Below, one piece after another: positions 18,814-22,053 of a stretch of 64,000 nucleotides of DNA. Made by a program: the position numbers and the translations under genes. The DNA is from Prochlorococcus sp. AG-679-M23 (GTDB lineage Bacteria; Cyanobacteriota; Cyanobacteriia; PCC-6307; Cyanobiaceae), in the NCBI GenBank assembly GCA_003208875.1, contig QCUR01000005.1, forward strand, positions 32,001 to 96,000, read 5' to 3'. The notes below the pieces were generated by a model, which was given only the letters and a program-made list of their open reading frames with translations, made no database searches and had not been told where the DNA came from. Each line of letters starts with the position of its first letter. Within the stretch, counting starts at the first letter, position 1.

Positions 18814-21279
18814 ATGAAGGTCTCTCAGAATTGGTTGAAATCCCTTGTAGAAATAAATACTACAGCAGACGATTTATCTGAAAAACTATCAATAGGTGGT
18901 TTCGAAGTTGAGTCACTTGTTGATTGTTCAGAAAATGTAAAAGGTATAGTTCTTGGAAAGGTTTTGTCGGTAGTCAAGCATGAGAATTCAGATAAGTTAT
19001 CTATATGCATTGTTGACATTGGAAGGTCTAATACTTTACAGATAGTTTGTGGAGCAAAAAATGTAAAGCAAAATATATATGTTTATGTAGCTACTGTTGG
19101 TACGCATTTAAGTGCTATAAATTTAACTATTAAAAAAAGTGAAATAAGAGGTGTTTCTAGTGAAGGAATGATTTGTTCGCTTGAAGAATTAGGAATAGAA
19201 GATACAAGTGAAGGAATCGCCATTATTGATGAGGATTTAGCCTTAAATCATAAATTAGGGACATCAGGAGCTGAAATACTTAATCTAAACGACTATATCT
19301 ACGATTTAGCAATTACTGCAAATAGACCTGATGGTATGTCTGTTGTTGGCATCGCAAGAGAAATATCTGCTCTTTTGGAAACTAAGTTAAACTTTCCAGA
19401 TTTAAAAACTAAGTATAAAACAAATGTTTATAGAGATTTTAATCTTTGCCCTGAGGCAATCACAAAAAATTGTCTTTATTCCATTAGCAATATTGAGTCC
19501 GTCAATGGGAAGCAATTATCTCCGGGATGGCTCAAAGATCGTTTATATAAATCAGGAATTAAATCTATCAATCTTTTGGTAGACATAACTAACTACATTC
19601 TTTTAGAACAAGGACAACCATTACATGCTTTTGATAAAGACAAATTATCTAAATTAATCGGCCGAAAGGTTTCATATAACGATTTCTCGGTTAGAAAGGC
19701 ATATAATAATGAAAATCTTTTGTGTCTGAATGGTGAGAATTATAAATTAAATGAAAATATAACTATCATCGCTTGTGACAACAAACCAGTCGCTATAGCG
19801 GGTGTAATTGGTGGTTTGGAAACAGCTGTAAATGAGGACACTTCTTCAATATATCTTGAAGGAGCAGTTTTTAATCCTGTCACGATAAGAAAGTCATCAA
19901 AAGAAATTGGAATTAGAACGGAATCTAGTAGTAGATATGAAAAAGGAATTTCTTATAAAAATACATTAGATTCAGTATCCCGTGCTATTAACATTTTAGA
20001 AGAATACTTTAATATTTTAAATCCAATAATCAATACTTCTAAAGAATTGGATTCCACAAAAATACTAATACCGTTGAGAAGAGAGAGAATTAATAAAATA
20101 CTTGGTCCAATTGTAATTAGAAATGAGAATTTCGATACTAATAGTAAATTAGAAAAAAGGTATTTATCAGATAATGAAATTTCGGAAAAATTAAAGCTAA
20201 TAGGTTGTACCTTAAACATAAAAGAATATGGATGGGATGTAGAAATTATTCCCAACAGGTCTCAAGATTTATTACGAGAAATTGATTTAATAGAGGAAAT
20301 TGCAAGATTAATTGGTTATGACATGTTTGATTTGAATTTACCAAATCCGATAAAACCAGGAAAGCTTTCTTCATCTCAAATAGCATTAAGGAAGTTAAAA
20401 ACGGGATTAATAGTAAGTGGATTTAACGAAGTATTGTCTTATTCTCTTGTTCCAGAAAGTAAGAATAATTTAATCAAGATTTCAAATCCTTTACTCTTGG
20501 AAACAAGTTGTTTAAGAGATAATATTTGGCAAGAACATATTAAAATATGTAATCAAAATATTAAGTCAGGACATGATTATTGTTGGATATTTGAAGTTGG
20601 AAATATTTTCAGTAAAAAACCTGATTTTTCACAAGAAGAAATCCTAAATGGAGCTCTCTATGGAAAAAATAAATTTGAACAATGGTTAGATTCAAATAAA
20701 GATAGTAATTTGACCTATTACGAGGCAAGAGGAAAGTTAAAGGAAGCATTATCAATATTAAATTTAAAAATAGAAGATAGATCAACAGATACGATAGATT
20801 TTCTTCATCCAGGCAGATCCTCTAAATTATTTACCGAAGGTAACGAAGTCGGATATTTTGGTGAGATTCATCCAAATTTAATATCTAACAAAATAGCATT
20901 AAAAAAACTGTATTTATTTAGTTTAAACATAAATAATATCTTAAAAGCCAGCACTAGACAAAATAAATGGATAACAGTTTATAAACAATTCCCAACAGTT
21001 CCCAAAATGGAACGTGATATTAATTTTATATTCAATAAAAAATACTTAGTAAGTGAGATAATTTCACAAATAAAAAAATCTGGTAAAAAATTATTAGAAG
21101 ATGTTAATTTAATAGATGTTTATGATGATGATAGTTTTGGTAAAGAATTAATAAGCTACACATTTAGATTATCTTATAGAGATTCTGAAAAAACATTATT
21201 AGATTCTGACATTGCATTTCTTCACGATAGTATTGTTGAAAATATTGAAAAAAAATTCTCCACTAAATTAAGAGATTAA
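18814..21279 (+). CDS. pheT: Phenylalanine--tRNA ligase beta subunit
   Basis: IVCGA, SEGMICS, TANRPD, GQPLHAFD, DLIEEIARLIGY, FDX-ACB C-terminus. Confidence 0.98.
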   Translation: MKVSQNWLKSLVEINTTADDLSEKLSIGGFEVESLVDCSENVKGIVLGKVLSVVKHENSDKLSICIVDIGRSNTLQIVCGAKNVKQNIYVYVATVGTHLSAINLTIKKSEIRGVSSEGMICSLEELGIEDTSEGIAIIDEDLALNHKLGTSGAEILNLNDYIYDLAITANRPDGMSVVGIAREISALLETKLNFPDLKTKYKTNVYRDFNLCPEAITKNCLYSISNIESVNGKQLSPGWLKDRLYKSGIKSINLLVDITNYILLEQGQPLHAFDKDKLSKLIGRKVSYNDFSVRKAYNNENLLCLNGENYKLNENITIIACDNKPVAIAGVIGGLETAVNEDTSSIYLEGAVFNPVTIRKSSKEIGIRTESSSRYEKGISYKNTLDSVSRAINILEEYFNILNPIINTSKELDSTKILIPLRRERINKILGPIVIRNENFDTNSKLEKRYLSDNEISEKLKLIGCTLNIKEYGWDVEIIPNRSQDLLREIDLIEEIARLIGYDMFDLNLPNPIKPGKLSSSQIALRKLKTGLIVSGFNEVLSYSLVPESKNNLIKISNPLLLETSCLRDNIWQEHIKICNQNIKSGHDYCWIFEVGNIFSKKPDFSQEEILNGALYGKNKFEQWLDSNKDSNLTYYEARGKLKEALSILNLKIEDRSTDTIDFLHPGRSSKLFTEGNEVGYFGEIHPNLISNKIALKKLYLFSLNINNILKASTRQNKWITVYKQFPTVPKMERDINFIFNKKYLVSEIISQIKKSGKKLLEDVNLIDVYDDDSFGKELISYTFRLSYRDSEKTLLDSDIAFLHDSIVENIEKKFSTKLRD

Positions 21280-21291
21280 TTGTATCACTAT

Positions 21292-21338
21292 TCTCATCCT
21301 AGACTTATTAATTGTCTGTAATTAAGTCTTATATGAGA
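21292..21338 (-). repeat. 47-bp bipartite element, copy 1 (inverted relative to copies 2 and 3)
   Basis: Reverse complement TCTCATATAAGA-CTTAATTAC-AGAC-AATTAATAAG-TCTAGGATGAGA. Confidence 0.8.
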
Positions 21339-21384
21339 CGGTTAGTATTCGTGTAAATCTAAATCATCATATATAATATTAACT

Positions 21385-21633
21385 ATGATTAATATCCTCT
21401 CATTATTAATATCTTCCGTCCTTTGGGTGCAAGTTCCTCAATGGTCTGATGATTGGTCTAAATGCGCTGTAGATGTACCAGATTCATCATGCCATTGGTA
21501 CATTACAGCACCTGATAATACTTTTGGAGATGGATTTGATTGGGCAAGCGCACCGTGGTTTGATGCAAATGGCTTGAGTGATGTTCCAAGCATTGAGAGA
21601 GAAACAGCCCTCCAAAAGCTTCAGACTCAGTAG
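21385..21633 (+). CDS. Trp/Asp-rich exported hypothetical protein (82 aa)
   Basis: Hydrophobic N-terminus, WVQVPQWSDDWSKC..C HWY..APDNTFG.GFDW..APWF. Confidence 0.8.
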   Translation: MINILSLLISSVLWVQVPQWSDDWSKCAVDVPDSSCHWYITAPDNTFGDGFDWASAPWFDANGLSDVPSIERETALQKLQTQ

Positions 21634-21757
21634 TACTGTCTTAAAGGCAGCTCTACATCATTAAAACTCTTGTTATATTAGTGTTTTTAGCTCAATAATT
21701 GAAGATTGGACAAACAAAGGACAATAATTTATAAAATTAAACTTTATATATTGATTT

Positions 21758-21804
21758 TCTTATTTAAGATTCATTAATAGACTATTTATAAGTCTTGTAT
21801 GAGA
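21758..21804 (+). repeat. 47-bp bipartite element, copy 2
   Basis: TCTTATTTAAGA-TTCATTAAT-AGAC-TATTTATAAG-TCTTGTATGAGA. Confidence 0.8.
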
Positions 21805-21877
21805 CTAGTAATACTTTCTTTAAATTTTTTTCTACTCTCATACGTAGGGAGGGGGTGCAAAACTGTATTTTATTAAT

Positions 21878-21889
21878 TCTTATACAAGA
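21878..21889. repeat. Solo palindromic box of the same family
   Basis: TCTTATACAAGA; half box TCTCATAC at 21836. Confidence 0.6.
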
Positions 21890-22006
21890 AAGTTAAAACT
21901 TCAATATTTTTATTTAATATTTGATATGCATTATTCACTTTTAAATACTCTGAAAAGCAAGAATCAATTTTTAAAGAATTATAAAATTAAGTTTTTATCT
22001 TTTAAA

Positions 22007-22053
22007 TCTTATATAAGACTTTTTATTAGACCTAGTTTAAGTCTCATATAAGA
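22007..22053 (+). repeat. 47-bp bipartite element, copy 3
   Basis: TCTTATATAAGA-CTTTTTATT-AGAC-CTAGTTTAAG-TCTCATATAAGA. Confidence 0.85.

Follow-up and report, generated by a model that had tools for sequence, protein, structure and literature searches.

A previously undescribed array of self-complementary 47-bp units in the terminus region of cyanobacterial chromosomes

Anatomy of the array

The window, by which we mean the whole 64,000-nucleotide stretch of DNA that was analysed, contains three 47-bp units between the convergent genes pheT and RHH-J (Table 1). Unit 1 starts 12 bp past the pheT stop codon (21279) and unit 3 lies 9 bp from the RHH-J stop codon (22063); in Synechococcus and Cyanobium, extra genes lie between pheT and the array. 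All seven 12-bp boxes recorded here by the initial annotation are present at their reported positions, as are its three 35-bp pairs with their spacers; for the lone box, 11 of 80 related loci have a perfect box in the corresponding interval. That annotation had placed copies 2 and 3 outside any promoter; unit 1 ends 46 bp before the ATG of the 82-aa gene, a small and highly transcribed gene, and is promoter-proximal.

Table 1 Features of the locus and candidate genes elsewhere in the source genome (positions are those of the window unless a contig or locus is named)
Feature	Coordinates	Strand	Remarks
Window	G000:C5:32001-96000		source genome G000, 1.65 Mb, 99.99% complete
pheT	18814..21279	+	left boundary of the array in many Prochlorococcus loci
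Unit 1 (47 bp, self-complementary)	21292..21338	.	67-bp model score 50.2
Unit 1 extended by weaker outer half-sites	about 21282-21348
82-aa gene, between units 1 and 2	21385..21633	+	MED4 PMM0872 by gene order
Unit 2 (47 bp)	21758..21804	.	extended about 21748-21814; 67-bp model score 58.2
Lone 12-bp box	21878..21889	.	partnerless half-unit
Unit 3 (47 bp)	22007..22053	.	67-bp model score 59.8
RHH-J gene, 337 aa	22063..23076	-	MED4 PMM0873 by gene order
Core tyrosine recombinase, 386 aa	G000:C4:163917-165077		MED4 PMM0524 by position beside ferrochelatase
Resolvase-like protein with HTH	L316:1348-2034 (G000:C2)

The consensus of 134 units from diverse genomes is TCT-N6-RGWCY-N7-RGWCY-N7-RGWCY-N6-AGA, which is self-complementary. 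Its full RGWCY sub-sites are centred at positions 12, 24 and 36, and a half-site marks either end (1 and 47). Further, weaker half-sites near -8 and 56, roughly 9 bp beyond each unit end, bring the total to about 67 bp. The sub-site itself reads TrAGWCTyA and repeats every 11-12 bp. What had been described as 12-bp boxes are the joints where sub-sites meet, and the "AGAC core" that had suggested a bipartite unit with a direction is the AG-W-CT of the centre sub-site read on one strand. Because the unit is a self-complementary array of RGWCY sub-sites, what looked like a directional core is the middle base of a palindrome of odd length. In high-light strains this centre base is nearly invariant for each orthologous unit, and fixation of the W bases reaches 97-100% within each set of orthologous units, against variable spacer bases, which argues that orientation is constrained in these strains. 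Over 50 other family loci, the polarity of the centre base is not fixed (first unit: 26 T, 24 A), and the unit has no family-wide direction.

In the 1.65-Mb source genome, a matrix of the box placed the six best boxes all at the array locus, with box-pair scores of 35.1, 31.2 and 29.4 compared to 13.7 for the next best pair, although this matrix was derived from the array's own boxes and the comparison is to that extent circular. With the 67-bp model, trained on the 134 units of many genomes (the window's three included), the three units scored between 50.2 and 59.8 whereas the next best site in the whole genome scored 17.1, and the scan returned one cluster. Moreover, in 12 locally shuffled genomes the mean number of matches was 0 at no more than one mismatch and 0.17 at no more than two, compared to 3 and 3 in the real genome. 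These findings confirm the three 47-bp units as genuine and without a counterpart elsewhere in the genome. Similar clusters in shuffled sequence or at other genomic sites, which the initial annotation had named as grounds for refuting it, are not common.

Symmetric column pairs showed no covariation in sets of 167, 43 and 34 non-redundant units (z at most 2.0 in all tests) and an Rfam search of the locus returned no match. Together these results argue that the array is a double-stranded protein site and not an RNA or an attC-type hairpin. (The Yfr22-24 small RNAs, which we had taken as a candidate identity for the locus, were set aside on the same two grounds and because no relevant paper was found.)

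Conservation and rearrangement of the array

All 80 high-light Prochlorococcus loci carry between two and four units, with three in 75 loci, four in 3 and two in 2; the two-unit loci carry a 34-bp-spaced variant. Among 52 other family loci (low-light, Synechococcus- and Cyanobium-type), 50 have 2-6 units within 1.6 kb past the RHH-J stop and 2 have none within that distance. The first unit lies no more than 14 bp from the RHH-J stop in 37 of these 50 loci, whereas the upstream side of the gene gave 3 matches in 98.9 kb. Conservation in relatives, on which the initial annotation had staked its interpretation, was thus borne out. Genome-wide, pattern matches were found in 31 of 33 genomes (32 closed genomes and the source genome), nearly always at the array locus among the matches listed (150 of 160), and 400 kb of G080 held four units plus one weak unit 5 kb off. 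In the family the array forms one cluster of about 0.5-1.4 kb that is mostly non-coding, with most inter-unit DNA of low-light Prochlorococcus and Synechococcus devoid of a conserved ORF, and it is kept at one position even in the most reduced genomes. That 0.5-1.4 kb of mostly non-coding DNA is retained in a lineage that sheds spare DNA argues for an important function, whichever protein binds it.

Outside the family, directly scored clusters were found in G200, G158, nine further f15 genomes and G326, and clustered full-pattern matches in G410, G446 and G513; G346 has one weaker unit. In the f6, f12, f18, f21 and f39 genomes examined no array was detected with a pattern that finds only 71 of 144 known units. 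Note that array counts rest on directly scored loci or clustered full-pattern matches. A half-pattern scan of the class has a high chance rate, and its 31/32 for f15 is therefore not a count of arrays; the 30 loci that it returned score no more than 11 with the full model. Among metagenome matches, 55 of 62 carry pheT, RHH-J or the small gene (an earlier, stricter pattern gave 0 metagenome matches), and two patterns gave 0 matches in viral contigs. Conservation of the array thus extends from the streamlined genomes of Prochlorococcus to filament-sized ones in other families.

Several individual loci have features of their own. Tandem partial or full units occur at L218:6930-7170 (G200) and L308:6997-7425 (G390), with periods of about 64 bp and about 85 bp. 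Four dispersed, near-identical sequences of G326 (C4:347566, C3:50986, C5:586620 and C5:597089; L297-L299) share a half unit (TCTTRTTTGAGACT...); two of them are direct repeats 10.5 kb apart and look like mobile-element ends, and the ORF listings show no linked recombinase. In G158 a 355-aa protein with a weak MmcB-like match and no homologue in the source genome is encoded between two unit clusters (L219:7033-8100).

At array loci outside the family, no gene was found to recur as a neighbour. From one lineage to another the genes beside the array are wholly different (mnmE in g9; others, unrelated, in f15 and f10). This bears on the idea that the array is a transcriptional element, either an operator for the small gene or a roadblock that ends convergent transcription of pheT and RHH-J. 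Each of the two stop codons is followed by a unit after 9-12 bp, a search of the locus for intrinsic terminators found none, and unit 1 is just upstream of a strong transcription start site (TSS), which passages of PMC5607370 report for the 82-aa gene in MED4. An element of this kind would have to be reconciled with a single locus per genome, with the exchange of neighbours between lineages and with a small gene limited to high-light strains, and we give the idea very little credence.

Comparison of loci showed that whole unit-to-unit modules duplicate, get lost or swap. Locus L070 contains a diverged 177/178-bp duplication in which the middle unit is a hybrid, its left half from unit 2 and its right half from unit 3; the crossover, at positions 34-40, is compatible with a 7-bp microhomology as well. 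Loci L040 and L041 have four units each, and L386 contains a duplicated unit-to-unit module. Between loci L302 and L402 identity runs at about 76-83% as far as one unit and returns at the next, and the 748-bp gene module separating these two units has been replaced. A number of small genes in G460, G578 and G400 have their ends 1-26 bp ahead of a unit. (These signs of recombination represent few events, with microhomology as an alternative source.)

The 82-aa gene is probably cargo captured between two units. Its product is 69% identical to a cyanomyophage protein encoded beside psbD; the interval has matches in 183 phage records, the best 10 of which are to the 82-aa gene. Moreover, the gene is present at the locus in 80/80 high-light loci and in 0/64 of the low-light, Synechococcus and Cyanobium loci searched. 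The protein is rich in Trp, contains two Cys and begins with a signal-like segment; a paralogue that is 77% identical lies at G000:C3:16886-17092, and no Pfam or NCBIfam family was found. The label "carboxylesterase" is unsupported. Contigs from RNA and DNA runs cover the gene (about 21397-21723), to which reads of phage or paralogue may contribute and which give no expression ranking.

A gene that was probably captured raises the question of whether the array might be a cassette or integration platform, comparable to an integron or to pdif modules, that serves gene capture and has no role in chromosome maintenance. The small genes bracketed by units in G460, G578 and G400, with stops 1-26 bp from a unit, would fit such a platform, as would the module swap between L302 and L402 and the phage-shared gene of the window. 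However, most inter-unit DNA in low-light Prochlorococcus and Synechococcus lacks a conserved ORF, there is no attC-type hairpin covariation, viral contigs gave no match, no integrase was found at the locus except one fragment, and the site keeps one position even in the most reduced genomes. On balance a pure capture platform seems quite improbable.

Chromosomal position and candidate proteins

In 32 closed family genomes, the distance from the gene adjacent to the array to dnaN (which is a proxy only for the origin) had a median of 0.479 of the chromosome, and was at least 0.45 in 26 genomes and at least 0.40 in 30. Note that these genomes are kin and not independent, and that position is partly shared ancestry. 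In closed chromosomes of other families that have an array, the distances were 0.454, 0.482, 0.40 and 0.22 (G578). The suggestion of the initial annotation that the locus lies opposite dnaN was thus correct, and the same position contradicts an iteron or origin. Its broader proposal, a structural protein-binding site, is otherwise supported by the single-locus, double-stranded array without hairpin covariation, and of the functions that it listed, terminus or dimer resolution is the best family.

Mapping against GC skew rests on the source genome, G080 and sampled G076. In the source genome, C5 alone among the seven largest contigs shows a clear skew reversal, with the switch at 75 kb and the array at 54 kb (21 kb apart). 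In G080, the switch is at 1,426 kb, the array at 1,340 kb and the antipode at 1,438 kb, so that switch and array are 87 kb apart. The skew signal of G058 and G022 is too weak to place a switch. In G076, where the array is at 0.33 from dnaN, sampled skew levels off into a plateau between about 520 and 790 kb of the 2.41-Mb chromosome and has turned negative by 810 kb, staying so onward; the array is at the plateau end, and the skew change is far from the antipode. (The replichores of G076 are strongly unbalanced and its plateau contains sign flips, which suggests inversions near the terminus.) A polar replication fork trap of the Ter/Tus or RTP type would be expected in the terminus region, and the negative skew from 810 kb in G076 would suit one. 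The site is symmetric and has no family-wide polarity, however, and a switch 21-87 kb from the array, at 75 versus 54 kb in C5 and 1,426 versus 1,340 kb in G080, argues that the array is not a fork trap, an explanation that we regard as scarcely credible. Thus, the array lies in the terminus region and is not a fork stop.

The corresponding MED4 genes, PMM0871-0873, are named pheT, "possible carboxylesterase" and "possible DnaJ domain" in passages of PMC2663038, and passages of PMC5607370 give flanking TSSs at 828,957 and 830,651. The spacing of these TSSs, 1,694 bp, matches the 1,708 bp of the window and places the MED4 array at about 828.9-829.6 kb by synteny. The interval 826-832 kb is, we assume, centred on half of the MED4 genome length. 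According to passages of PMC10913375, this interval received 92,377 of 1,368,548 and 186,179 of 2,729,515 vesicle reads, or about 6.8% of vesicle-DNA reads, and was called the highest peak, "at the dif site"; these passages give no sequence for the MED4 "dif", and describe very uneven coverage elsewhere (means 3,050 and 16,381, median 0). By synteny the array would sit in this peak window, which is suggestive only. The array may explain the Prochlorococcus vesicle-DNA peak at this spot.

The initial annotation had named the product of the adjacent gene as the obvious binder. RHH-J has an N-terminal ribbon-helix-helix (RHH), an acidic disordered linker, a helical middle domain and a C-terminal J domain with HPD. 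Its RHH sequence scores are weak and its fold matches consistent (NikR Z 6.0, Arc Z 5.2); for the middle domain, which was not folded alone, there was no convincing match in Foldseek, VIA or Atlas. RHH-J matches 101 of 120 family genomes at E no greater than 0.001, a few only weakly, and none of 195 genomes outside the family. (Separate short RHH frames of 60-80 aa related to the RHH-J N terminus are present in low-light G100, G071, G065, G003 and G034.)

Cooperative binding of the array by RHH-J, in the manner of ParR at parC or of Arc, would yield a centromere-like complex or autoregulation. The RHH-J stop and the first unit are no more than 14 bp apart in 37 of the 50 other family loci with units, the RHH fold is supported by the matches above, and the pitch of the unit compares with that of the Arc operator, which is 11 bp. 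In MED4, the RHH-J transcript peaks at 17.6 h with the ftsZ cluster, according to passages of PMC2663038. Against RHH-J as binder, the sites are downstream of its gene and not at its promoter, and undegraded arrays occur where the gene was not found. In genus g9, 0 of 10 genomes have a full-length RHH-J match, and strong units lie beside mnmE in 3 of 3 examined; in four low-GC Prochlorococcus-like metagenome contigs (L374, L386, L395 and L424) the array is intact and joined directly to the next genes, with RHH-J missing from its locus and no room for it; and arrays of other families likewise lack the gene. That arrays persist in several lineages without the gene indicates that RHH-J is not required for the array. 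We therefore consider RHH-J improbable as the binder, and see it as a family-specific neighbour, possibly an accessory factor that recruits DnaK.

The source genome encodes a single tyrosine recombinase above cut-off (Table 1), and neither FtsK (PF01580) nor ParB was found in this 99.99% complete genome. All 33 aligned recombinase loci agree at the R, K, R, H and Y catalytic positions, Tyr standing in for the first His of HxxR, and the gene occurs once per genome in 32 of 32 family genomes. Its scores against Xer models are far below their cut-offs (XerA 38 bits, cut-off 220; XerS 16.6, cut-off 267), and it had no XerC/D model match. (A single-sequence fold with pLDDT 35 was left out of the evidence.) Passages of PMC2663038 place its MED4 transcript peak at 19.4 h, with dnaA at 16.4, ftsZ at 16.6 and smc at 18.0 h.

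The recombinase was found in 167 of 321 genomes overall, among them 30/32 f15, 2/2 f10, 3/4 f37 and 3/3 f40 genomes outside the family; it is also in 3/3 g9 genomes without RHH-J. It is also common where no array was detected (f6 29/32, f39 27/32, f12 2/2), and its query gave no match in the array genomes G446 and G513 (99-100% complete) or in G050, which has one unit. The recombinase and RHH-J are both missing from G025, whose pheT locus is also free of units. Near the recombinase gene itself, the best unit score in 33 loci was -1.1. A serine-resolvase-like protein was rejected as binder on distribution: a gene of this kind turned up in 16 of the 32 family genomes and in none of the 3 from g9. 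None of the three candidates tested (RHH-J, the recombinase and the resolvase-like protein) fits every genome.

Some further observations concern these proteins. In G460:C1 and G578:C1, a recombinase orthologue lies about 4-5 kb from dnaN; both genomes have a related transposase-like ORF beside the array, and in G460 a fragment of a related recombinase is found at the array (L302:4970-5537). A second, weak phage-integrase-like match in the source genome (E 8.8e-4, 190-aa frame) is at G000:C6:2113-2505 (L152). The resolvase-like protein presumably lacks the usual catalytic serine motif, and the MED4 namesake of its gene, beside lipA, is strongly S-phase induced.

Taken as a class, a terminus segregation site is likely the right description of the array. 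Within this class, the best reading is that the array is a cis-acting terminus site, a counterpart of dif for the core tyrosine recombinase in a lineage without FtsK or a XerC/XerD pair; we hold it as the most likely of the specific explanations, tentatively, and on comparative grounds. The candidate recombinase would bind neighbouring RGWCY sub-sites that face each other across 7 bp and would exchange strands between sister copies late in the cell cycle, so that chromosomes would be unlinked or monomerised. Since spacers differ between units, each unit would be expected to recombine well only with its own sister copy, and this restriction could let several units stand side by side. Rare exchanges across units might then generate hybrids, duplications and captured genes, while RHH-J could act as a dispensable accessory that brings DnaK to the complex. 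A dif counterpart is favoured by the position opposite dnaN, the presence of the recombinase once in 32/32 family genomes, its invariant catalytic residues and the breaks of homology at units. The late transcript peak of the recombinase in MED4, the joint absence of recombinase, RHH-J and pheT-linked unit from G025, the vesicle-DNA peak and the failed dif prediction in Cyanobacteria (PMC3025954) point the same way. It is opposed by the architecture (not two arms around one spacer), the multiple copies and the absence of linkage to the recombinase gene; by imperfect co-occurrence, with arrays in which no recombinase was detected (G446, G513, G050) and recombinases without arrays; and by the G578 array at only 0.22 from dnaN and skew switches 21 and 87 kb off.

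The main rival to a recombination site is a non-catalytic terminus anchor, similar to matS/MatP or to a centromere, which we judge somewhat unlikely. Here a conserved dimeric protein would polymerise on the 5-7 sub-sites, one per helical turn, and tether or condense the last-segregating DNA at mid-cell; module shuffling would be a by-product of microhomology and septum breakage. The palindromic sub-sites, with their 11-12-bp pitch on about one face of the helix, and the 2-6 units per locus suit cooperative binding more than they do a crossover site with two arms, and an anchor accounts for arrays in genomes from which one or another of the three tested candidates is missing. The evidence from position and from vesicle DNA counts for it to the same degree. 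On the other hand, no candidate protein was found and no neighbour recurs among array loci outside the family, and the homology breaks at units are more directly explained by a recombinase.

If the array is a dif counterpart for the core recombinase, a fuller terminus system of picocyanobacteria and several further cyanobacterial families can be envisaged: a multi-copy array and a single non-Xer tyrosine recombinase working without FtsK, heterologous spacers that confine exchange to sisters, the dedicated co-chaperone RHH-J timing the complex, capture of genes from phage and elsewhere, and a mark on the DNA that Prochlorococcus exports in vesicles. That all of these parts belong together is doubtful.

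Comparison with known systems

Earlier surveys offer little to place the array. Passages of PMC3025954 state that dif prediction failed in Cyanobacteria, those of a 2019 genome paper (PMC6416890) that no dif sites were predicted in cyanobacteria, and those of PMC5101192 that xerC is rare in them. Passages of PMC5357621, PMC7901474 and PMC11753881 contain nothing on the array element, the supplement files of PMC3430701 gave no match, and a full-text literature search returned no description of it; literature behind subscriptions, for instance the vesicle study of 2014 with its supplements, could bear on the element. The array is a real, previously undescribed terminus-region element. For the final step of chromosome segregation in cyanobacteria, it is a possible site that helps cells to finish separating their chromosomes, and it comes with a definite sequence of 47 bp, a known place in the genome and a ranking of candidate proteins, which makes the segregation question directly testable.

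Several known systems share single features with the array. Palindromic protein sites limited to the terminus region are found in matS/MatP; matS, however, is a 13-bp site scattered over hundreds of kb, whereas the array is one cluster and is not dispersed over the ter domain. Unlike parS of ParABS, the array is opposite dnaN and not near the origin, in a genome in which no ParB was found. RHH centromeres and operators (ParR/parC, omega, Arc, MetJ) likewise have tandem short sub-sites at near-helical pitch beside an RHH gene, but the array is chromosomal and downstream of its gene, has no adjacent partition NTPase, and persists without the RHH gene. As in pdif modules, integron cassettes and the IMEX that passages of PMC5357621 describe at dif, gene modules between repeated sites are gained, lost and duplicated, although the array lacks XerC/D arms, a linked integrase and attC hairpin covariation, and its inter-unit stretches in the family are mostly non-coding. 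It differs from res sites of serine resolvases in that the resolvase-like gene is absent from many array genomes (it is in 16/32 family and 0/3 g9 genomes), and from Ter/Tus in that its units are non-polar and do not bound the fork-fusion point. The array is not parS, matS, Ter, attC or res.

The closest comparison is with dif and its single recombinases (XerS/difSL, XerH/difH and XerA/dif), with which the array has in common one terminus-region locus and one conserved tyrosine recombinase candidate. Known single-recombinase dif sites are single, two-arm sites of 28-31 bp, with difH arms of 11 and 10 bp around 6-10 bp, according to passages of PMC5357621, whereas the array repeats an element of 47-67 bp two to six times, each copy having five to seven sub-sites (three full ones and two to four halves). 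Its candidate recombinase is outside the Xer families, far below the XerA and XerS cut-offs. The source genome has no FtsK, unlike XerCD, XerS and XerH systems, and the array is not beside the recombinase gene, unlike XerS and XerH sites. Archaeal XerA, as described in passages of PMC5357621, is FtsK-independent, with a dif that is away from 180 degrees and not always gene-linked; the array, too, is without FtsK and unlinked to the recombinase gene. The vesicle-DNA peak (passages of PMC10913375), which synteny places at the site, would be a further likeness to dif. Thus, the array stands outside dif as a class and yet may work like dif.
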